Shown here: piece by piece, positions 1,343 to 11,739 of the stretch
Layout: every line of letters begins with the position of its first letter
How positions within the stretch are numbered: the first letter of the stretch is position 1
Assembly: GCA_963762145.1 (NCBI GenBank)
Contig: CAVXJS010000004.1
Coordinates: forward strand, 1-14,429
Source: an uncultured Candidatus Rokubacteria bacterium
Lineage (GTDB): Bacteria; Methylomirabilota; Methylomirabilia; Rokubacteriales; CSP1-6
Length of the DNA: 14,429 nt
Direction of reading: 5' to 3'
The notes under the pieces: generated by a model
Databases searched by the model: none
The model's input: the letters and a program-made list of their open reading frames with translations, nothing else
What the model was told of the DNA's origin: nothing
Position numbers and translations under genes: made by a program

Positions 1343-2302
1343 ATGCCCTACTCGTCGCCGATCTTCGATAGCGAACTGGAGCTGTACTTCCGGGAAGTCC
1401 CCCACGACTCCGTCCTGGACATCGGGGCCGGGGAAGGCAAGTACGGCGAGATGCTTCGCCGAGTACAGCCGAACGCGAAGCGGATCGCGGTAGAGCTCGA
1501 TACGGACTACGTCGAAGAGTACAAGCTCCGAGATCTCTACGATGAAGTCTGGGATCGTGACGCAGCCGATCTCATGAACGACCTCGACCGCACGTACGAT
1601 GCCGTGATCCTCGGCGACTGCATCGAGCACATGCGCAAGAGCGTCGGGTTGGACCTGCTGAACTTTCTCGTCTATCGCTCGAGAATCATCGTCGTGAAGT
1701 TTCCGATCCAGATGATTCAAGACCCGTACCAGGGTCACAAGAGCGAGGCGCATATCTCGGTGTGGTCTGAGCACGACTTCCGGGGTATGGACTGCTTCTT
1801 CGCCGAGCGAGACCATATCTGCCTCGCCATGGTGAGGGGCTATCGGAGCCAGACCATGGAGTGGATCCCGGACGCGGTGATGCAGCGTTTCGGCTACCGC
1901 AGCATGGCCGAGTTCTACGCGAGAGATCCCGCGCGGTTGTTGCTCGCGGACGTCGAATCCCGCCGCCGAGGATCAGCGCGGTCCGAGATTCGCATGACCA
2001 TTCCGTCCGGTGCGACCTACATCCTGGTCGACGAGCTGCAGACGGATCTCGCCGCCGACGCGGACCACAAGGCGTTGCCGTTTCTCGAACGGAACGGTGA
2101 ATACTGGGGCCCTCCCACGGACTCGCAGGAAGCCATCCGGGAGATCGAACGCATGCGCCGGTCCGGGTGTACGCACATCGTCTTCGCGTGGCCGGCCTTC
2201 TGGTGGCTGGAATACTACCGAGGCATGACGGAGTACCTCCGCACGCGGAGCCGGTGCGTGCTGGAGAGCGACCGACTGAGGATGTTCGACCTGCGGGACT
2301 AG
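1343..2302 (+). CDS. Class I SAM-dependent methyltransferase with an additional C-terminal domain of unknown function
   Basis: Motif I VLDIGAGEGKYG, acidic motif II IAVELD, and YDAVILGDCIEH. Start placed at ATG 1343 (MPYSS, 319 aa) after GGGAGA at 1327-1332, rather than at 1307. Confidence 0.85.
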   Translation: MPYSSPIFDSELELYFREVPHDSVLDIGAGEGKYGEMLRRVQPNAKRIAVELDTDYVEEYKLRDLYDEVWDRDAADLMNDLDRTYDAVILGDCIEHMRKSVGLDLLNFLVYRSRIIVVKFPIQMIQDPYQGHKSEAHISVWSEHDFRGMDCFFAERDHICLAMVRGYRSQTMEWIPDAVMQRFGYRSMAEFYARDPARLLLADVESRRRGSARSEIRMTIPSGATYILVDELQTDLAADADHKALPFLERNGEYWGPPTDSQEAIREIERMRRSGCTHIVFAWPAFWWLEYYRGMTEYLRTRSRCVLESDRLRMFDLRD

Positions 2303-2313
2303 CTCGTCGTCGG

Positions 2314-3207
2314 CTACGGCACCTCGCGCGAGTCGAGCTGCGGCTCGAGCGGAATCCGCGTCTCGTGGCAGCCGTACGCGTGCGGGGTCAGCTCGATCAC
2401 GCTGTGCAGCGGGATGGGCAGGTACGGGCAGCGCTCGCGCGGAAGACCCTGGAAGTACGCGTAGAGCGCGCGCAGCACCGCGTTGTGGGCGACGACCAGC
2501 ACCGGCTTGCGCGTGCGCTCGAGCTCGATGATCACCGGGTCCAGGCGCAGGATCACGTCCTGGTACGACTCGCCGCGCGGATAGCGGTAGGTGAACTTGT
2601 CGCGTCGGCGCGCGGCATACTCCTCGGGCAGGCGCTCCTGGATCTGCGCGTAGCTCATGCTGTCGCAGATGCCGGCGTCGATCTCGTCGAGCGCGCGCCA
2701 CGGCCAGGGCGTTCGGCCGAGCGGCGCGGCGGTCTGGACCGCGCGCCGCAGCGAGCTCGTCCAGATCACCACGCCGTCGCGATCCGGGTCGCGCCGGTCG
2801 AGGAACTCGGCGAGCGACTCCGCGTAGCGATGGCCGGCGGGCGTCAGGTCGGGATCGCCGCCGAGCACCCCGGCGACGTTGAACACGCTCTCGCCGTGGC
2901 GGGTGAGCCAGATCGGGCGCGCGGTCAGGTGCAGGTTCATCAGGAAGAACACGAGGCGCGCGGCCAGGTAGCCGTCGACGTTGCTCACGGTGACACCGCG
3001 TCCGGGGCCGGTGACGCGCAGGTACGCGCCCTCGTCGTCGTCGAGCGGCTCGGTACACGCGCTCGTAGTGGGCGATGCGGGCGCGGAAGTCGGTCGACCG
3101 CCTCGTCGGGATCCGCTGTCCTCGTAGTCGGGCGACGACAGCTTGGTGCTGCGGATGTTGGCCTCGATGATGTGCGGCTCATCGCAGCGGATCTCGATGA
3201 ACAGCAC
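2314..3207 (-). CDS. C-terminal fragment of PFK-2/FBPase-2 (end of the kinase domain plus histidine-phosphatase FBPase-2 domain)
   Basis: Contains RPIWLTRHGES, WTSSLRRAVQT, WRALDEIDAGIC, DKFTYRYPRGESYQD, VAHNAVLR and PLHSVIELTPHAYGC. The apparent start at 3207 is an internal GTG. Confidence 0.85.
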   Translation of the reverse strand: MLFIEIRCDEPHIIEANIRSTKLSSPDYEDSGSRRGGRPTSAPASPTTSACTEPLDDDEGAYLRVTGPGRGVTVSNVDGYLAARLVFFLMNLHLTARPIWLTRHGESVFNVAGVLGGDPDLTPAGHRYAESLAEFLDRRDPDRDGVVIWTSSLRRAVQTAAPLGRTPWPWRALDEIDAGICDSMSYAQIQERLPEEYAARRRDKFTYRYPRGESYQDVILRLDPVIIELERTRKPVLVVAHNAVLRALYAYFQGLPRERCPYLPIPLHSVIELTPHAYGCHETRIPLEPQLDSREVP

Positions 3208-3571
3208 CTGGAAGCCGGCGCTGCTCGCAGCGGGCGCGCACCATCGCGCGGCGGGCGCGCGTGGTGTTGGTGGCGTCGTAGATCGCGACCTCTCCTTCGG
3301 CCGCGAGCCACGCGTCCATGTCGTCGAGCGCCGCCATCGCCGCCGCCCGGCGCGCCTCTTCGCCCTGCGCGTTGTCGGGATCGAAGAAGCTGTGCGGCAT
3401 CTGGGCGCCGACCCGCGCGCGCCGGTACTCGCCGACGTTGAAGACGCCGGTGCGATAGCCGAGCCACGAGAGATAGCGCTCGATGCGGCGCGCGGTGTAG
3501 CTCTTGCCGCGCGCCGGCAGCCCGACCATGACTATCGCGAGCCGGTCGTCCAGGATGGTGGCGCCCGCCAT
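3179..3571 (-). CDS. N-terminal fragment of PFK-2/FBPase-2 (P-loop kinase domain), as a gene caller would report it
   Basis: 130 aa from ATG 3571. Walker A GLPARGKS and DATNTTR are present; the frame loses homology after CEQ (about 3221). Confidence 0.8.
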   Translation of the reverse strand: MAGATILDDRLAIVMVGLPARGKSYTARRIERYLSWLGYRTGVFNVGEYRRARVGAQMPHSFFDPDNAQGEEARRAAAMAALDDMDAWLAAEGEVAIYDATNTTRARRAMVRARCEQRRLPGAVHRDPLR

Positions 3572-3598
3572 GACATTCTCCACTCTACTCCCGAGTCC

Positions 3599-3627
3599 TT
3601 GACTCGTCACCGTTGTCGCGGCACTAT
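3599..3627 (+). promoter_or_regulatory. Putative sigma-70 promoter for the cysteine hydrolase
   Basis: TTGACT (3599-3604), a 17-bp spacer, then CACTAT (3622-3627), in the 85-bp divergent intergenic region. The -10 match is weak. Confidence 0.4.
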
Positions 3628-3656
3628 CGAGCCCCGGAGGCCCAGAGGACAGGCTA

Positions 3657-4364
3657 GTGAGCACCGCGCACGAGAAGTACATCGCCCTCCAGCGGCACCG
3701 CAATGCGGGCCCCCTGGCGCTCGATCCCCGCACCACCGCGCTCCTGATCATCGACATGCAGGAGTACTTCGTGAACCCGGCCTCGCCCTTTTCGCGGGCC
3801 TGTGAGGCCATCGTTCCGGGCGTCCTGAGCCACTTCCAGGAGCGCGGCCGCGGCGTCGTCGAGCCCTCGCTCCGGCGGCTGCTCGACTTCTTCCGGGCCC
3901 GTGGGCTGCGGATCGTCTACACCACCGTGGCCTCGGAGCTGCGCGATGGCCGCGACCTGATGCCGATCTTCCAGCAGCGGAACGCGGCCAACCGGGCCGC
4001 GGTGGGCGACGCCGCGATTCCGCCACGGGGCGACGCATGGGCTCGCATCGTCGCGAGTCTCGAGCCGCGACCGGACGAGCTCGTCGTGAACAAGACGACC
4101 TACGGCACGTTCAGCTCGACGGGGCTCGACCACGCCCTGCGCGCGCTCGGCATCACGTCGCTCGTGGTGGGGGGCGTGGTGACGAACGTCTGCGTGGAGA
4201 CCACCGCGCGCGACGCCGCCGATCGCGGCTACGAGGTGGTACTGCTCGACGACGGGTGCGCCGCGTACTCGCCGGAGATCCACGAGGCCACCCTGCTCTC
4301 GTTCCAGGGCCCGTTCGGCCGGGTGCGGAGAGCCGACGAGGTGCTGGCGCTCCTGGACCGATGA
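3657..4364 (+). CDS. Isochorismatase-family cysteine hydrolase
   Basis: Asp-Lys-Cys triad motifs ALLIIDMQEYF, NKTTYGTF and GVVTNVCVETTARDAADRGY. GTG start with GAGG at 3645-3648. Confidence 0.92.
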   Translation: MSTAHEKYIALQRHRNAGPLALDPRTTALLIIDMQEYFVNPASPFSRACEAIVPGVLSHFQERGRGVVEPSLRRLLDFFRARGLRIVYTTVASELRDGRDLMPIFQQRNAANRAAVGDAAIPPRGDAWARIVASLEPRPDELVVNKTTYGTFSSTGLDHALRALGITSLVVGGVVTNVCVETTARDAADRGYEVVLLDDGCAAYSPEIHEATLLSFQGPFGRVRRADEVLALLDR

Positions 4365-4376
4365 GCCGGGGCCGGT

Positions 4377-5426
4377 TCAGCCGAGCTTCGGCATCACCTG
4401 CTCGGCGAACACGCGCATCGTGCGCTCGACCTCGGCGCGCGGCAGCATCGCGCCCTGGTCGAACCAGCCGATGATCTGGGAGAGCCCGAACTCCTCCTTC
4501 GCGCGCTGGAGACGGTCCACCACCTCCGCCGCGTCGCCGAACACGGCCTGATCCCGGCAGAACTTCTCGTAGGGCAGGTCGGCGATCGTCTCCCGGATGA
4601 ACTTGAGCCGGGGCAGGTGATCGCCGTAGGAGTCGGGCAGGCTCGAGAAGATCGTCTCCAGGTTCTTGTAGTACTGCATCACACCGGGCCGCATCGCGTC
4701 GCGCGCCGCCGCGGACGTGGCCCCGACGTGGACCGGCTGCATCAGCGCCATCTGCTCGGGCCCCCACGGGTGCCCGGCCGCGGCGAGCTTCTCGCGATAG
4801 GCGGTCATGCACTCGCGCAGCAGGGGCAGCGGGGTGGTCGTCGTGCCCGAGTAGATCGGCAGCCCCAGCTCCGCGATGTGGGCGAAGCTCTCCGGCGTGT
4901 GCACCGCCACCCGGATGGGCGGGTGCGGACGCTGGAGCGGCTTCGGCACCACCGAGAGGTTCTCGATCTGGTAGAACCGCCCGTCGTAGCTGAAGCGGTC
5001 CTTCGTCCAGGCCAGGCGGATGATGTCGAGGCACTCGGCGAAGCGGGCGCGGTTCTCTCCGACCGGCACCCGGAAACCGTGGAACTGGGTGGGAATGGAG
5101 CCGCGGCCCACCCCGAACTCGAGGCGACCGCCCGAGAGGATGTCCGCGGTGGCGGCCTGCTCCGCGCAGTCGAGCGGCTGGTGCAGCGGCAGCAGGGTCA
5201 CCGCGGTGCCGACGCGAATGCGCTTGGTGCGCTGGGCGATCGCGGGCACCGCCATGAGCGGGGTGGAGAGCAGGGAGAAGGCGGCGCCGAAGTGGATCTC
5301 GGCGAGCCAGGCCACGTCGAAGCCGAGCGAGTCGGCGAGCGTGGCCAGCTCGAGCATCTCGGTGAAGCGCTGGGCGTGGCTCTCGCCGGCCCGCTCCGGC
5401 GCCTGGAAGAAGAGGCCGAATCGCAT
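4377..5426 (-). CDS. LLM class (luciferase-like) flavin-dependent oxidoreductase/monooxygenase
   Basis: Motifs MRFGLF, LGFDVAWLAEIHF, TKRIRVGTAV, DILSGGRLEFGVGRG and PKPLQRPHPPI; 349 aa. Confidence 0.92.
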   Translation of the reverse strand: MRFGLFFQAPERAGESHAQRFTEMLELATLADSLGFDVAWLAEIHFGAAFSLLSTPLMAVPAIAQRTKRIRVGTAVTLLPLHQPLDCAEQAATADILSGGRLEFGVGRGSIPTQFHGFRVPVGENRARFAECLDIIRLAWTKDRFSYDGRFYQIENLSVVPKPLQRPHPPIRVAVHTPESFAHIAELGLPIYSGTTTTPLPLLRECMTAYREKLAAAGHPWGPEQMALMQPVHVGATSAAARDAMRPGVMQYYKNLETIFSSLPDSYGDHLPRLKFIRETIADLPYEKFCRDQAVFGDAAEVVDRLQRAKEEFGLSQIIGWFDQGAMLPRAEVERTMRVFAEQVMPKLG

Positions 5427-5439
5427 CGCGCGCCCGGCC

Positions 5440-6282
5440 TCAGGCGCGCGCGAGCGGCCAGCCGAGCCACTCGCAGACGCCGCGTCCCATCACGTACTCC
5501 AGATCCTCGCCCTTGAGCCACGGCAGGTGCTGGGTGAAGAGCGTGATGCACTCGTAGTAGGTGCACGGCATGCGGGTGAGATCGGTCCCCCAGAACGTGC
5601 GCTTCGGGCCGAACGCGTCCACGAGCCGCCGGATGCCGTCGTGGAGATCCGGGAACGGGTAGGGCTGGGCCGAGAGCGAGACCATGCCCGAGGCCTTCAC
5701 CGACACGTTCGGGTGCTTGGCCAGTGCGCACACCGCGGGCAGCTCCTCGAAGACCTTGGGCGCCTTGCCGCGCACGCTGATGCCCACGTGGTCGATCACG
5801 AGCTTGAGGCCGGGATGGCGCGTGGCGATGCGATCGAGGTGATCGAGCGCGCCCGGCACCAGGACCATCAAGGGGATGCCCGCCTTCTCGGCCGCGGCCC
5901 AGAGCCAGTCCGCGGAGCCGTCGGTGAGCAGGTGGCGGTAGTGCTCGTTGTGGAAGGTGAAGCGCATGCCGAGCATGCCCGGCTGCTTCCGCCAGTCGGC
6001 CACGAGGGCGCGGCTCGCGATATCTTGGAGTCCGAGGCGGCCCATGACCGCGAAGCGATCGGGATAGCTGCGCGCGGCCTCCAGCGCCATGTCGTTGCGG
6101 TCGCCTTCCCACGAGGGCGGCACCAGCACCATGCGCCGCACGCCCGCGAGATCCATCTGGAAGAGCAGCGTCTCTTTGAGGATCGGGTAGGGCTTCTGCG
6201 CTTCCGCCGCGCGGCCGGGTGGCCACGGCCGGCTGGGGCTCTCCGCGGCCCAGAGGTGCACCTGCGCGTCGACGATATCCAT
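5440..6282 (-). CDS. Amidohydrolase_2 family protein (lactonase-like TIM-barrel hydrolase)
   Basis: Motifs IVDAQVHLW, GMRF, LVIDHVG, NVSVKASG and FGPKRTFWGTD. AGGAG RBS at 6292-6288. Confidence 0.88.
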   Translation of the reverse strand: MDIVDAQVHLWAAESPSRPWPPGRAAEAQKPYPILKETLLFQMDLAGVRRMVLVPPSWEGDRNDMALEAARSYPDRFAVMGRLGLQDIASRALVADWRKQPGMLGMRFTFHNEHYRHLLTDGSADWLWAAAEKAGIPLMVLVPGALDHLDRIATRHPGLKLVIDHVGISVRGKAPKVFEELPAVCALAKHPNVSVKASGMVSLSAQPYPFPDLHDGIRRLVDAFGPKRTFWGTDLTRMPCTYYECITLFTQHLPWLKGEDLEYVMGRGVCEWLGWPLARA

Positions 6283-6304
6283 GGGATCTCCTGTGAGAGC
6301 GGAG

Positions 6305-7855
6305 TTACCGCGGGGCCTTGAGCCGGAGGTCCTCGTACGGCGCCGAGTACGAGAAGCCCTTGATGTGGTCCACGCACGCCTCCTCCACCCGTGGGCCGAC
6401 GCCCCAGAGGAAGGCCAGTTCGTAGATGGGCACGTACATCACCCGGTCCTGCATGATCTGCTGGATCTGGTGCAGCATGCCTTCCCGCTTCTTGCGATCC
6501 AGCTCGCGGGCCTGGCGCTCGAAGAGCGTCTCGATCTCCGGGACCACTCCCGACGAGTAGATCCCGTTCTTGGTGACGTAGACCTCGATGCGGGTAGCCG
6601 CGTTGCCCGCGGGCGCGCCCAGGCCCATGATCACGCCCCGGAGCTTGTGCTCGCGCCAAGCGGTGAGGAAGGCCGCGCGCTCCATCGTGCGCAGCCGCGT
6701 GCGGATGCCGACGGCCTGCAGATAGCCGCCGATCGCCTCGGCCAGCGAGAAGAAGGGCGGAAACGGGGTGAGGTCGCCCGCGTCGAAGCCGTTGGGGTAG
6801 CCGGCCTCGGCGAGAAGCTTCTTGGCCCGGGCGGGATCGTACGCCGGCGGCGGATACGCCCGCGCGAAATCGAGGACGCGCGGTATGAGGCCGCCGGTCG
6901 GATGCGAGAGCCCGAGCGTTTCGGCCTGGTTTAGCCCCTCGCGGTCGAGGGCATGGCTCGCGGCCAGCCGGACGCGCCGGTCGTGCCACGGCGACTTGGG
7001 ATCCCACTGCTCGGGCAGGTCGAGGAAGGTCACGCCGGGCGGCATGGCCGCGGCGAGGCGCAGGCCCGGCGTGCGCTTGACCTCCTGGGCCGTTGGACCG
7101 CTTAGCAGGTAGACGATGTCCACGTCGCCCGCCTTGAGAGCGGCGGCGCGCGTGGTCTCGTCGGGCATGCTGCGGAAGACGAGCCGCTTGACCGACGGGA
7201 CCTTTCTCCAGTAGCCCTCGAAGGCTTCCATCACCAGATCCACGCCGGGGTTGAAGCTCACCACCCGGTACGGGCCCGCGCCGATCGGCGCCTTCTTGAA
7301 GCCGTCGTCGCCCACCTTCTCCACGTACTTGCGCGGCACGATCCACGCCGCGCCGGTGGCGGAGGTACCGTAGAAGGTCATGAAGTCCGGCCACGCCTCC
7401 CGGAGGTGGAAGCGCACGCGCCCGGCGTCCACGATCTCGACGTCGCGCACGCGGTCCTTCAAGAGCTTGGCCGCGGCGCCCTTGTAGCGCTCGAACGAGA
7501 ACTTCACGTCGTCCGCGGTCACCGGGTCGCCGTTGTGGAACTTCGCGTTCTTGCGCAGAACGAACTCGTAGACGAGCCCGTCCTTCGACACCGTCCAGGA
7601 CTCGGCCAGGCTCGGGGTGTTCTCGCCGGCCGGCATCGGCTTCACCAGCGCGTCGTGCACGGCGTAGAGCACCATGAACGGATTGATGAAGGCCTCGGTG
7701 TCGCTCGGGTCGAGCCACTTCGTGGCCAGCGTGACGTGGAGCCCCCACGTGAGCGTGCCCTCGGGCGCCGCGGCGGCGGGCGCGCGGAGCGCGGGGATCA
7801 GGAGCAGGACGGCGACCGCGACGAGCGCGCGACGTAGAAGGAACGGTCTCACCAT
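6305..7855 (-). CDS. ABC transporter substrate-binding protein, family 5 (DppA/OppA/NikA-like)
   Basis: Signal peptide plus motifs LAESWTVSKDGLVYEFVLRKNAKFHNGDPVTADDVKFSFER, PIGAGPY, DRRVRLA and YDPARAKKLLAEAGY. GGAGG RBS at 7864-7860. Confidence 0.95.
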   Translation of the reverse strand: MVRPFLLRRALVAVAVLLLIPALRAPAAAAPEGTLTWGLHVTLATKWLDPSDTEAFINPFMVLYAVHDALVKPMPAGENTPSLAESWTVSKDGLVYEFVLRKNAKFHNGDPVTADDVKFSFERYKGAAAKLLKDRVRDVEIVDAGRVRFHLREAWPDFMTFYGTSATGAAWIVPRKYVEKVGDDGFKKAPIGAGPYRVVSFNPGVDLVMEAFEGYWRKVPSVKRLVFRSMPDETTRAAALKAGDVDIVYLLSGPTAQEVKRTPGLRLAAAMPPGVTFLDLPEQWDPKSPWHDRRVRLAASHALDREGLNQAETLGLSHPTGGLIPRVLDFARAYPPPAYDPARAKKLLAEAGYPNGFDAGDLTPFPPFFSLAEAIGGYLQAVGIRTRLRTMERAAFLTAWREHKLRGVIMGLGAPAGNAATRIEVYVTKNGIYSSGVVPEIETLFERQARELDRKKREGMLHQIQQIMQDRVMYVPIYELAFLWGVGPRVEEACVDHIKGFSYSAPYEDLRLKAPR

Positions 7856-7879
7856 GACACCTCCGGTCCGTTCGGTCGG

Positions 7880-8977
7880 CTAATGGTACACCGGCCCGGC
7901 GGGCAGCCGGGCGGGGTCGAAGGCCTCGAGGTCGAGCGACGTGGCGCGGCCGTCCGCGATCAGCTCGGCCAGCGCGAGACCGGTGCCCGGCGCGTTCAGC
8001 ATGCCCCACGGCCCGTGGCCGGTCGCCACGTACGCGCCCGCCGCGCCGGGCACGCGGCCGATCAGGGGGATGCCGTCGTCGGCGATCGGCCGGTAGCAGG
8101 CCTGGCGGCGCTCGATCGGCGCGGCGGCCAGCGCGTGGGAGACGCGCCCGGCGGCGCGGGCCAGCGTGGCGCAGCCGGCCTCGCTCACCTCCACGCCCTC
8201 CGCGGACTCCGGCAGCGGCTGGCGGTCGGCCATGCCGCACACGTAGACGGTGCCGTCGGGCCGCGGGATGATCTCGGGCTCGAGCGCGCGGCCGTCCGCG
8301 GTGCGGTAATCCATGAAGAGCGCGTGGGCGGGCACGTCGGCGGCGGCGAGCGTGACGCTGTAACCCTTGAGCCCGTGGATGCTCGGCAGGGCCACGCCCT
8401 TCACGCGGCCGGTCCAGGGGCCCATCGCGAGGACGACCGCGTCGGCCTCGAAGGCCTCGCCATTCACCGTGACGCCGCTGACCGCGCGGCCGCGGGTGGT
8501 CACCGCCTCGACCACCCCGGTGCGCAGCGCCGCGCCGCGGGCCCGCGCCGCGTCGATCAGCGCGGTGGTGAAGCGGGCGGGGTGGACCTGGGCCGTCGTC
8601 TCGGTCGAGCCGAGCGCCCCCGCCACGACGGCCGGCCCGTCGATCCAGCCCGGCGCGGGGATCCGGTGTCCGCCCGCCACCGCGCCCTTCTCGCGCGCGG
8701 CCAGCATGTAGGTGTCCATCCGCCGATAGCCGTAGTCGGTCGGGATCTCGCGCGCGAGATCTCCGTGGAGCGCGAAGCTCAGCCGGGCGAGCGGGCCCAC
8801 CTCCGTGTTATCGCACCAGTCGAGCGCGAGGAAGCCGCCGGACTTGCCGGAGGCCGCGCAGGCCACCCCGGTGCGCTCCACGACCGTGACCGCGACGCCG
8901 CGGCGGGCCAGGTAGTAGGCCACCGCGGCGCCCATCACGCCGGCGCCGCAGACGATGACGTGCCGAGGAGGGGTCAT
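7880..8977 (-). CDS. FAD-dependent oxidoreductase, DAO/glycine oxidase family (Tda3-like)
   Basis: Rossmann motif VIVCGAGVMG, ASGKSGGFLALDWCD, TTAQVHP and ATGHGPWGMLNAPGTG. Start placed at ATG 8977 (MTPPRH, 365 aa) because the 9058 start would overlap the divergent gene's start and RBS. Confidence 0.88.
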   Translation of the reverse strand: MTPPRHVIVCGAGVMGAAVAYYLARRGVAVTVVERTGVACAASGKSGGFLALDWCDNTEVGPLARLSFALHGDLAREIPTDYGYRRMDTYMLAAREKGAVAGGHRIPAPGWIDGPAVVAGALGSTETTAQVHPARFTTALIDAARARGAALRTGVVEAVTTRGRAVSGVTVNGEAFEADAVVLAMGPWTGRVKGVALPSIHGLKGYSVTLAAADVPAHALFMDYRTADGRALEPEIIPRPDGTVYVCGMADRQPLPESAEGVEVSEAGCATLARAAGRVSHALAAAPIERRQACYRPIADDGIPLIGRVPGAAGAYVATGHGPWGMLNAPGTGLALAELIADGRATSLDLEAFDPARLPAGPVYH

Positions 8978-9000
8978 GGCCGGCTCGCCGCACAGGGTAG

Positions 9001-9050
9001 TACAATCCTCCGCGAACCCCCAGCCCAATCGCCACCCCCGACGGAGGAGG
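9001..9050 (+). promoter_or_regulatory. Putative -10 element (TACAAT) and strong RBS (GGAGGAGG) for the 9057 gene
   Basis: TACAAT at 9001-9006 in the 79-bp divergent intergenic region, with no clear -35. GGAGGAGG at 9043-9050, 6 nt before the ATG. Confidence 0.45.
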
Positions 9051-9056
9051 CCTGTC

Positions 9057-9896
9057 ATGGACTACGGCGCGGTCATGTTCCCCACCGAGTACTCGATCGC
9101 TCCGGACGAGCTGGCGCGGGCTCTCGAGGAGCGCGGCTTCGAATCGGTGTGGTTTCCCGAGCACACGCACATCCCGGCGAGCCGCCAGAGCCCGTGGCCG
9201 GGCGGGGGCGAGCTGCCGCGCGACTACTGGTCGGCCTACGATCCGTTCATCGCGCTCATGGCCGCGGCGGCCGCGACGAAGCGCCTCCGGCTCGGCACCG
9301 GCATCTGTCTCGTGATCGAGCGCGATCCGATCGTCACCGCCAAGGAGGTGGCCACGCTCGACCGGCTCTCGGGCGGCCGGGTCCTGTTCGGTATCGGCGG
9401 CGGCTGGAACGCCGAGGAGATGGGCCATCACGGCACCGCGTGGAAGAGCCGCTGGCGGGTGCTCCGCGAGCGCGTGCTCGCGATGAAGGCGATCTGGACC
9501 GAGCGCGAGGCGAGCTACCAGGGTGAGTTCGTGCGCTTCGGGAAGATCTGGGCCGAGCCCAAGCCCCTCCAGAAGCCGCACCCGCCGATCATCATCGGCG
9601 GCGACGGGGAGAAGACGTTCGACCGGGTCGTGGAGTTCGGCGACGGCTGGATGCCGATCATGCGCCCGCACACCAACCCGGTGGAGAAGATCCCCGCGCT
9701 CCGCGAGCGGTTGAAGACGGCGGGCCGCGACCCGAAGTCGGCGCCGGTGTCCATGTTCTTCGCGCCGCCCAAGCGGGAGGCGCTCGCCGCGCTCGCGGCG
9801 GCCGGGGTGCAGCGCGCCATCTTCGGCCTGCCCGCCGCGCCCCGCGACGAGGTGCTGCCGAAGCTCGACGCCTACGCGGCGGTGATGCGCGCCTGA
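9057..9896 (+). CDS. LLM class F420-dependent oxidoreductase (Rv2161c-like)
   Basis: Motifs GFESVWFPEHTHIP, DPFIAL, AKEVATLDRLSGGRVLFGIGGGWNAEEM and PKPLQKPHPP. ATG 9057 with a strong RBS; 279 aa. The F420 cofactor is inferred from the subfamily only. Confidence 0.9.
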   Translation: MDYGAVMFPTEYSIAPDELARALEERGFESVWFPEHTHIPASRQSPWPGGGELPRDYWSAYDPFIALMAAAAATKRLRLGTGICLVIERDPIVTAKEVATLDRLSGGRVLFGIGGGWNAEEMGHHGTAWKSRWRVLRERVLAMKAIWTEREASYQGEFVRFGKIWAEPKPLQKPHPPIIIGGDGEKTFDRVVEFGDGWMPIMRPHTNPVEKIPALRERLKTAGRDPKSAPVSMFFAPPKREALAALAAAGVQRAIFGLPAAPRDEVLPKLDAYAAVMRA

Positions 9897-10876
9897 CCGC
9901 CCGGGGCGACCAGGATCTTGCCCGCGCGCTCGCCACGCTCGGCGTGCGCCACCGCGGCGCGGATGTCGTCGATCGCGTAGACCTTCTCGACCGGCGCGGT
10001 GAGGAGCCCCTGCCGGACCTGCTCGCCCAGCTCCGCGTAGATCGCCCGGATCTGGGCCGGTGAGCGGCTGGCGAGCGCGCGGCCGAGGATGAAGCCGACC
10101 AGCGTCTGCCCGTCGCCGACCAGCTTGCCACGCGGCATGATCGGATCCTCGCCGCTCATCGAGCCATAGTTGCACACCACGCCGCCCTCGCCCAGGCAGG
10201 CCGAGATCCTCGCGGTGGCGCGGCCCGAGATCGCGTCGATGCCGAGGCGGATCGGCGTGCCGTCGGTGCGGGCCTTGACCACCTCTGCCAGCTCGGGGCC
10301 GTCCACCACGCAGACGTCGGCGCCGAGCGCGGTCAGCTCGCCGAACAGCGCCTCGCGCCGCACCACGTTCACGGTCCGCACGCCGCGGGCCCGCGCCAGC
10401 CGGATCACGAAGCGGCCCACCGCGGAGTTGGCCACGTTCTGGATGATCCAGTCGCCCGGTCGCAGGGCGACGAGGTCGGAGAGCAGGAGGAGGGCGGTCG
10501 GCGGGTTGATGCGGAGCATGGCGGCCTGGAGCTCGTCGAGTCCCTCCGGCACCGGGATCACGTCGTCGCCCTTCACGCGGCGGCGCTGGGTCCAGTTCTC
10601 GCGCTGCAGGTTGATCACCCGGTCGCCCGCCTTGACGTGCGAGACGCCGGCCCCGACCGCGGTGACGCGGCCGACGCACTCGGCGCCGATGCCGGCGGGC
10701 AGGGCCGGCCGCAGGCGATACGTCCCGCGGCACATCGAGAGATCCGCCGGGTTGATCGGGAATGCGAGCACGTCGAAGACGACCTCGCCCGCCGCCGGCG
10801 CGCCGACGTCCGGCACCTCGACGCAGCGGACCGCCTCCGCGGGCGCCCCATAGCGCTCGAGCAGGACCTGCTTCAT
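9872..10876 (-). CDS. MDR-family NAD(P)H oxidoreductase, trans-2-enoyl-thioester reductase (ETR/MECR)-like
   Basis: Motifs PINPADL, INPPTA, WIIQNVANSAVG, NYGSMSG and GKILV; no structural-zinc Cys cluster. Start at ATG 10876 (MKQVLL, 334 aa) overlaps the upstream stop as ATGA. Confidence 0.88.
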   Translation of the reverse strand: MKQVLLERYGAPAEAVRCVEVPDVGAPAAGEVVFDVLAFPINPADLSMCRGTYRLRPALPAGIGAECVGRVTAVGAGVSHVKAGDRVINLQRENWTQRRRVKGDDVIPVPEGLDELQAAMLRINPPTALLLLSDLVALRPGDWIIQNVANSAVGRFVIRLARARGVRTVNVVRREALFGELTALGADVCVVDGPELAEVVKARTDGTPIRLGIDAISGRATARISACLGEGGVVCNYGSMSGEDPIMPRGKLVGDGQTLVGFILGRALASRSPAQIRAIYAELGEQVRQGLLTAPVEKVYAIDDIRAAVAHAERGERAGKILVAPGGQARITAA

Positions 10877-11739
10877 CGCGCCACCGGCTCCGCGGGATCG
10901 CCCGCGATGGTGGTGCGCTGCATGAGGCGGCGATACCGCTTGGTGTCGAAGGGCGTCGCGCGGTGGAGCACGCAGCGGTTGTCCCAGATCACGAGGTCGC
11001 CCTCCTGCCACTCGTGCCGGTACACGAACGCGGACTGGGTGACGTGATCGAGCAGGGTCCGCAGGAACGCCCGGCCCTCGTCCACCGGCCAGCCCTCCAC
11101 GTGCGAGGCGTGCGCGCCCAGGAAGAGGGCGCGGCGGCCGTTCACCGGGTTGGCCCGCACGAGCCGGTGACGCACCGGCGGGTAGACCGCGCGCTCCTCA
11201 GCGGTGAAGAAGCCGGGCCGGACCTGGTCGCGCGACCACGAGAAGTCGTGCACGACGACCGCGTGCTCGGCGCGGCGCTTCAGGTCGTCCGGCAGCGAGG
11301 GATAGGCCGCGCGACCACTCGCGAACTCGGTGGCACCGCCCTCGGGCGGCACGATCCGCCCGGTCAGGATCGAGCAGAGCGACGGTACCGTCTTGAACGA
11401 GCTGTCGCTGTGCCAGAGCATGTTCGCGAGCTGGTAGACCATCCGCCGGTCTTCCGCGGGAATGACCTCGCCGGTCTTGATGTCGAGGTTGGACTGGCGC
11501 GCGAACGGGGTGCCCGCGGCCGGGTTCATGCTGCGGGTGACCTCGAGCGCGCCGAAGCGGAGGCTGAACGCCACCTGAGTCTCGTCGTCGAGCCCGGCGC
11601 CGCGGAAGAGCAGCACCGAGTGCTCGTCGAAGGCGGCGCGGATGGCCGCCCACGTGGCTTCGTCGAGCGGTCGGCTGATGTCGGCGCCGACGATGCGCGC
11701 GGCGAAGGAGGAGCCGAGTGGGGTCACCGTGATCGTCAT
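10873..11739 (-). CDS. TauD/TfdA family Fe(II)/2-oxoglutarate dioxygenase (TfdA/SdpA-like)
   Basis: HxD motif in ANMLWHSDSSFK, GGATEFA, HRLVRANPVNGRRALFLGAHA, and WDNRCVLHR with the distal His; 288 aa. Confidence 0.93.
   Translation of the reverse strand: MTITVTPLGSSFAARIVGADISRPLDEATWAAIRAAFDEHSVLLFRGAGLDDETQVAFSLRFGALEVTRSMNPAAGTPFARQSNLDIKTGEVIPAEDRRMVYQLANMLWHSDSSFKTVPSLCSILTGRIVPPEGGATEFASGRAAYPSLPDDLKRRAEHAVVVHDFSWSRDQVRPGFFTAEERAVYPPVRHRLVRANPVNGRRALFLGAHASHVEGWPVDEGRAFLRTLLDHVTQSAFVYRHEWQEGDLVIWDNRCVLHRATPFDTKRYRRLMQRTTIAGDPAEPVAR

Follow-up and report, generated by a model that had tools for sequence, protein, structure and literature searches.

The usual teaching is that fructose-2,6-bisphosphate (Fru-2,6-P2) regulates glycolysis and gluconeogenesis in eukaryotes only. 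The classical activator site is carried by the eukaryotic duplicated phosphofructokinase (PFK-1), and the N- and C-terminal tails of the animal isozymes of 6-phosphofructo-2-kinase/fructose-2,6-bisphosphatase (PFKFB) carry phosphorylation control. An exception is already on record: the introduction of PMC9721465, citing Rider et al. 2004, names a single bacterial one for Fru-2,6-P2, Desulfovibrio desulfuricans. PMC11793985 describes the eukaryotic role alone. In the literature that we searched, whose coverage is imperfect, we found neither a paper on a PFKFB enzyme of bacteria, myxobacteria included, nor enzymatic or metabolite data on any bacterial homologue.

Here we describe a PFKFB-type gene in a bacterial contig of 14,429 nt, the whole of which is called the window. 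It is the entire contig C4 of a source genome of 6.26 Mb in 25 contigs with 70% GC, rated 88% complete and 5.4% contaminated. We consider, at a probability of about 0.7, that the gene encodes a bacterial PFKFB core enzyme of functional type, that its frame breaks are long-read-style assembly errors, and that it was acquired horizontally from Polyangiales-type myxobacteria.

The gene and its domains

An earlier note, made from the letters of this DNA, had described a 417-aa kinase-phosphatase fusion in the PFKFB domain order. This was borne out: deleting four extra bases gives 1254 nt, that is, 417 codons and a stop, with 6PF2K followed by His_Phos_1 (Table 1). In the three-frame translation of the minus strand, the start ATG lies at 3571 and the stop TAG at 2316..2314, and all of the motifs listed before (GLPARGKS, FNVGEYRR, DATNTTR, RHG, LDEIDAG, AHNAV, YRYPRGESY) were found. 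The note had also pointed to a Shine-Dalgarno site, the lack of introns and GC-rich codons as in the neighbours; we found GGAG 7-10 nt upstream of the ATG, no intron, and a GC3 of 0.87, similar to that of the neighbouring genes.

Table 1. Positions in the window of the PFKFB-type gene, its pieces and the adjoining intergenic region
Feature	Positions	Strand	Content and basis
Whole PFK-2/FBPase-2 (PFKFB-type) gene	2314..3571	-	417 codons + stop, four extra bases set aside
Piece 1: N-terminal half of 6PF2K	3224..3571	-	GLPARGKS (Walker A), FNVGEYRR, DATNTTRARR; Pfam 1.1e-39, profile 11-118 of 223
Piece 2: mid-kinase domain, other frame	3118..3219	-	FIEIRCDE, KLSSPDY; 6PF2K profile 119-146
Piece 3: DPDEAV, six codons, third frame	3096..3113	-	Translation and congener alignment
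Piece 4: 13 codons, DFRARIAHYERVY	3053..3091	-	Translation and congener alignment
Piece 5: kinase end and entire His_Phos_1	2317..3051	-	RHGES, LDEIDAG, YRYPRGESY, AHNAV; 2.9e-41, profile 1-187 of 194
Stretch with four 1-base insertions	3050..3223	.	172 nt; congener alignment, soil contigs, G013
Divergent intergenic region between PFKFB and isochorismatase-family genes	3572..3656	.	85 nt; includes GGAG, the ribosome-binding site for PFKFB

The Pfam search that the note had proposed gave 136.5 bits for 6PF2K (PF01591) on piece 1 (E 1.1e-39, cut-off 27), with remnants of this domain on two further pieces, and 141.7 bits for His_Phos_1 (PF00300) on the last piece (E 2.9e-41, cut-off 21.7). These matches are far beyond chance. 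The 6PF2K scores of the window fall in two frames (137.4 and 56.8 bits), and those of the congeners, the other genomes of the same genus, reach 218-257 bits, all in one frame. For the PFKFB protein, none of the NCBIfam models scored above its cut-off. The window gene thus joins a kinase domain above the gathering score to a C-terminal histidine phosphatase, as PFKFB proteins do; its frame is interrupted by four +1 breaks, and the single frame is intact in 8/8 aligned congeners. Judged by its sequence, it is a member of an already annotated bacterial PFKFB branch, whose homologues measure 400-430 aa and whose function is predicted.

The gene stands alone. Its convergent neighbour is a methyltransferase-like gene (1307-2302), and its divergent neighbour is an isochorismatase-family gene (3657-4364, +). 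ORF clustering found no conserved neighbour across 18 loci, and the gene neighbourhood was therefore rejected as a functional clue. As stated before, no glycolytic gene lies within the window. The gene context is shared only by the congener genome G013, which is collinear over about 8.8 kb (4379-8789 at 94%, 2309-4358 at 91% and 80-1255 at 84%). The methyltransferase-like gene (1307-2302, in the window segment 1256-2308) is absent from the otherwise collinear G013 locus, where about 1.3 kb extra lies between the isochorismatase and luciferase-like genes. The region 4377-11739 holds two luciferase-like monooxygenases, Amidohydro_2, SBP_bac_5, a DAO flavoprotein, a zinc-type dehydrogenase (9872-~10850, minus) and a TauD-family dioxygenase, and these oxidative and uptake genes may form a cluster for the use of organosulfonates or peptides. 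The segment 11753-14416 (minus), which reaches almost to the contig end, encodes a hybrid sensor kinase of 887 aa that combines dCache, GAF, HisKA, HATPase and receiver domains.

The frame breaks

The frame is broken by four 1-base insertions, at ~3222, ~3116, ~3096 and ~3051, which shift it from 2 to 0, 1, 2 and 0 in turn; none of the four lies in a homopolymer. All of them are absent in 8/8 aligned congener genes (86-91% nucleotide identity), and apart from these bases the window and the eight congener genes differ in length at the N-terminus only. The same was seen in soil populations. When contigs from four soil-metagenome runs of three studies were aligned to window positions 2000-3900, the extra bases were absent from 100% of the contig depth at all four places in 4/4 runs. 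A contig of 1783 nt from run X1, covering 2058-3844, has 27 mismatches and four gaps in all, each of them at one of the four insertions. The soil contigs differ from the window by ~1.5% and may for this reason represent other strains.

The closest collinear genome, G013, also lacks the four extra bases. Three other 1-base insertions are private to G013, opposite window positions 4624, 5872 and 7336 (L106, G013:C29); they fall in luciferase-like, amidohydrolase and solute-binding genes whose counterparts in the window are intact, judged by Pfam coverage. With about 40 contigs, G013 is probably a long-read-like assembly, and private single-base insertions therefore seem to be characteristic of these assemblies. 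The three insertions suggest that long-read MAGs of this genus often contain indel errors. A GC3-phase scan together with Pfam coverage found no further frame break in the 14.4-kb contig. Outside the window, a frame change was found on C10 at ~188076-188142 (~188,100), where a 497-aa protein of a congener aligns in frames -1 and then -3; this was the one other change among 14,517 redundant aligned residues, a rough sample of the genome-wide frameshift rate.

Since the extra bases are absent in congeners and soil contigs, and since G013 has private insertions of its own, the four frame breaks are very probably assembly errors. The frame correction of the earlier note did recover the 417 codons, and most likely it repairs such errors and does not describe a biological feature. 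Programmed frameshifting was rejected, as it would need four consecutive +1 events that are absent from all relatives.

Among the alternatives, the one that survives best is true and recent decay of the gene to a pseudogene in this strain alone, so that the insertions are real mutations and the enzyme is no longer made. As assembled, the window sequence has no open frame across 3050-3223, a 6PF2K match is missing in 7/20 congeners, and a 163-nt contig of run X4 connects 2302 to 3647 without the PFKFB gene. From the last two observations, loss of the gene seems to happen in this group. The X4 contig, with a depth of 3, links the stop codon of the methyltransferase gene (2302) to position 3647, shortly before the isochorismatase start, with 26 different letters between the two, and its flanks have 5-7 mismatches per 67 nt relative to the window; it looks like the allele of a relative that is without the PFKFB gene exactly at the gene borders. 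Against decay, all four insertions are +1 and lie within 172 nt, whereas the remaining 1086 nt are free of any lesion, stop or motif change, which is an odd pattern for a decaying gene. The pattern fits a local consensus error, G013 has the same kind of private insertions in conserved genes, and every near-identical contig in 4/4 runs is without the extra bases. We therefore regard recent decay as unlikely and retain the reading of an intact gene with assembly errors.

Conservation of the active sites and predicted function

The query for structures was an intact protein of a congener (L003:1444-2730; 428 aa when read from the chosen ATG), which matched 14 distinct PDB sequences at E <= 1e-10. 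Its residues 16-418 align with residues 34-434 of the 520-residue human PFKFB3 (E 5.3e-120), which agrees with the earlier statement that long regulatory tails are lacking. Further matches are to PFKFB2, to the enzymes of rat testis and liver, and to the bisphosphatase domain by itself. Identity to eukaryotic PFKFB cluster representatives is 45-55% over the full length.

The motif alignment comprised 29 bacterial rows and 14 named or eukaryote-sourced rows. In the kinase domain, the columns that are invariant in 29/29 bacterial rows are Walker A GxPxxGK[ST], RR of GEYRR, D/T/N of DATN and RR, together with K of KLSSPDY and R..R...Y; in the rat testis and human structures, the corresponding residues form the ATP loop and bind Fru-6-P. 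In the phosphatase domain, RHGES, R, E of LDEID, K, YRYP.GESY, the second H and R are likewise invariant in 29/29 bacterial rows, and in the rat and human structures the His of RHG, the Glu of LDEID and the second His make up the catalytic triad, with K, YRYP.GESY and R as ligands of the sugar phosphate. The window gene carries all of the invariant motifs of both domains, and both are kept more strictly in the bacterial rows than in the 14 eukaryotic rows.

Based on these features, the stand-alone gene would encode a core enzyme of 417 aa. Its P-loop kinase, at the N-terminus, would phosphorylate C2 of fructose-6-phosphate using ATP, and its C-terminal histidine phosphatase would hydrolyse Fru-2,6-P2 via a phospho-histidine intermediate. 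Without tails, the balance between kinase and phosphatase would be governed by substrates and metabolites. The Fru-2,6-P2 formed would most plausibly inhibit a class 1 fructose-1,6-bisphosphatase (FBPase) as a substrate analogue, and it might also modulate the PPi-dependent phosphofructokinase (PPi-PFK) of the host. Reportedly, the class 1 FBPase of E. coli is inhibited by Fru-2,6-P2 (a report of 1984); bacterial PPi-PFKs of this short type are reported to be non-allosteric, which counts against the proposed regulation. Domain identity, conservation of residues, intactness in relatives and in soil populations, the phyletic pattern and the nesting in the tree were observed; from there on, both enzymatic activities, and regulation of the host PPi-PFK and/or class 1 FBPase, are inferred.

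The PPi-PFK is encoded at C17:30517-31464 (NF041103 equivalog, 568.9 bits vs a cut-off of 550) and is the sole full-length PFK of the host genome. A class 1 FBPase-like gene is also present (C7:150058-150621), with 352 bits, just below the cut-off of 368, and no GlpX match was found in this genome. At G000:C21:1137991-1138305 lie the C-terminal 105 residues of the classical ATP-PFK of the congeners, with 75% identity. The first 309 residues of the congener ATP-PFK have no other match in the host genome, and the only further match to this protein, at 32% identity, falls on the PPi-PFK gene (C17). Co-occurrence of PFK or FBPase with the PFKFB gene in the genus was considered and set aside: class 1 FBPase is uninformative because it is present in 19/20 congeners, and a PFK match, found in 13/20 congeners, showed no association (9/13 PFKFB carriers vs 4/7 non-carriers).

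It could also be argued that the protein is intact and acts on another sugar phosphate, or is a phosphatase only, so that it has a PFKFB-like fold and is not a Fru-2,6-P2 enzyme. In line with this, no assay of a bacterial homologue was found in the literature searched, most homologues are named just 'broad specificity phosphatase PhoE/predicted kinase' at JGI, all NCBIfam models stay below their cut-offs, and the host is without the eukaryotic duplicated PFK-1, having the PPi-PFK and the 105-aa ATP-PFK remnant only. On the other hand, an identity of 45-55% to eukaryotic PFKFBs extends over the full length, the residues that bind Fru-6-P and Fru-2,6-P2 in the rat and human enzymes are all kept in 29/29 bacterial rows, and the bacteria conserve both domains more strictly than the 14 eukaryotic rows do. 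We judge this alternative to be slightly less likely still than decay of the gene, and a Fru-2,6-P2 enzyme remains our preferred reading.

Distribution in bacteria

The phylum sample comprised 251 genomes of 68 genera. Within it, a full-length gene was found only in the genus of the window (13/20 congeners and the window itself); in the rest of the sample there was no full-length match, the other matches being weak P-loop ones. Among 8000 candidates scored in a word-indexed protein search, 4407 clusters reached E <= 1e-5. The top matches were a 'Methylomirabilota bacterium' (86% identity) and 'Polyangiales bacterium' proteins (69, 72 and 76%). NCBI already gives such homologues, including some MAG copies, the name 6-phosphofructo-2-kinase/fructose-2,6-bisphosphatase, which is not the name that most carry at JGI. 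A search of cluster representatives returned 1265 at E <= 1e-30, the nearest named ones being Acytostelium (55%), Podila (50%) and Sodiomyces (47%); another Myxococcota cluster stood at 52%.

In a peptide-pattern scan of one genome per prokaryotic species, at least 592 stretches were confirmed among at least 600 returned. The best 80 of these at least 592 include complete genomes from Sorangium cellulosum, So ce56 (L056) being one, and from Minicystis rosea (L039) as well as Byssovorax and Sandaracinaceae MAGs, and a Desulfovibrio sequence was not found among these best 80. Of 401 genomes sampled evenly from the Sorangium phylum, 82 carry a 6PF2K match at E <= 1e-30, with one copy each. The gene is common in soil myxobacteria and no rarity. 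The earlier note had called bacterial homologues sporadic, and this part did not hold, given these 82 genomes, the complete Sorangium and Minicystis genomes and the names already in use at NCBI. The other part of its interpretation, a PFKFB fusion in a genuine bacterial contig with both active sites kept, stands. The note had also counted homologues that are widespread and have a known different function as evidence against the proposal; they are widespread, and as no different function is known, the proposal is not overturned.

The complete Sorangium genomes among the matches listed (L043-L059) have, in 15/15 cases, a PFKFB homologue about 50 kb from the record start, and this shared location suggests stable vertical inheritance there. 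The congener MAGs among the matches (L025-L031, L037) bear discordant titles: four Methylomirabilota and one each of Nitrosotalea, Limnocylindria, Verrucomicrobiia and Deferrimicrobiaceae. The phylum name of the genus is therefore probable and not certain. L025 and G019 have PFKFB genes of 100% identity.

Origin of the gene

The tree of eukaryotic and bacterial homologues that the earlier note had recommended was built by careful maximum likelihood from 43 rows (29 bacterial) and 431 columns and is unrooted. The genus of the window forms a clade of nine rows (support 100/99) inside Polyangiales sequences, nesting in a set of 12 rows (99/95) and in one of 14 (100/99); the non-genus members of these sets have Polyangiales or Myxococcales titles, plus one Burkholderiales. 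This nesting, together with the phyletic pattern, supports horizontal gain of the gene by the genus, probably from a Polyangiales-like donor.

In this unrooted tree, the bacterial rows nest inside no single eukaryotic lineage, and 29/29 lie on one side of a branch that has a support of 72/85 and is present in 69% of bootstrap trees. Rooting by distant P-loop kinases or phosphatases was dropped as unreliable. With an unrooted tree and a split at 72/85, we assign no direction of transfer between bacteria and eukaryotes.

That the PFKFB gene reached the contig by eukaryotic contamination or a chimeric join has next to no chance of being true: the closest named non-bacterial relatives are eukaryotic (Acytostelium 55%, Podila 50%) and the estimated contamination of the genome is 5.4%, but the GC3 of 0.87 is near that of the neighbours, with no intron and with a Shine-Dalgarno site, the gene is present in 13/20 congeners at 86-91% nucleotide identity, and continuity, which the earlier note had wanted confirmed, holds across both flanks, where the independent 1783-nt short-read contig argues against a chimeric join and the contig is collinear with G013 over ~8.8 kb. 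The gene is thus best read as a genuine bacterial one, as the earlier note had it.

A broader reading would be that Fru-2,6-P2 is a regular regulatory metabolite in a large bacterial group, the Polyangiales, that the gene was exported horizontally to this Methylomirabilota-like soil genus, and that Fru-2,6-P2 acts on non-eukaryotic targets such as class 1 FBPase and a short PPi-PFK. The fused gene itself would perhaps be of myxobacterial origin. A bacterial origin of the fused gene is conceivable because the 29 bacterial rows stand together and inside no single eukaryotic lineage. We hold this reading as a whole to be rather doubtful.

Comparison with known systems

Taken by itself, the window is a modest result, one more homologue. 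The wider importance lies in the finding that a strictly conserved, complete PFKFB core occurs in about a fifth of the sampled Sorangium-phylum genomes, cultivable strains included, and that the gene was also passed, as the tree suggests, to an unrelated soil genus. As the gene is present in cultivable Sorangium, bacterial use of Fru-2,6-P2 and its targets are directly testable in a culturable organism. The frame breaks also carry a warning, as long-read MAGs of this genus have private 1-base indels that mimic pseudogenes.

Among the known systems, the single-domain histidine phosphatases are the most distant. CobC alpha-ribazole phosphatase, PspA and dPGM share the C-terminal domain, which gives sub-threshold NCBIfam matches (e.g. 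TIGR03162, 81 bits vs 163); membership in these families was rejected, as all matches are below cut-off and these enzymes are without a 6PF2K domain.

The Polyangiales homologues resemble the window protein in size (~409-425 aa), in having the same motifs at 57-76% identity, and in being encoded by stand-alone genes in variable contexts, and they differ from it in the host phylum. The eukaryotic PFKFB1-4 (2axn, 6iby, 5htk, 1bif, 1k6m) agree with it in both Pfam domains and their order, share its kinase and phosphatase motifs and are collinear over ~400 residues. Unlike the animal-type regulated isozymes, whose N- and C-terminal extensions have protein-kinase sites, the window protein consists of the core only, 417 aa with no regulatory tail at either end. 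The hosts differ as well: the eukaryotes have a duplicated PFK-1, whereas the host of the window has a PPi-PFK and a class 1 FBPase.
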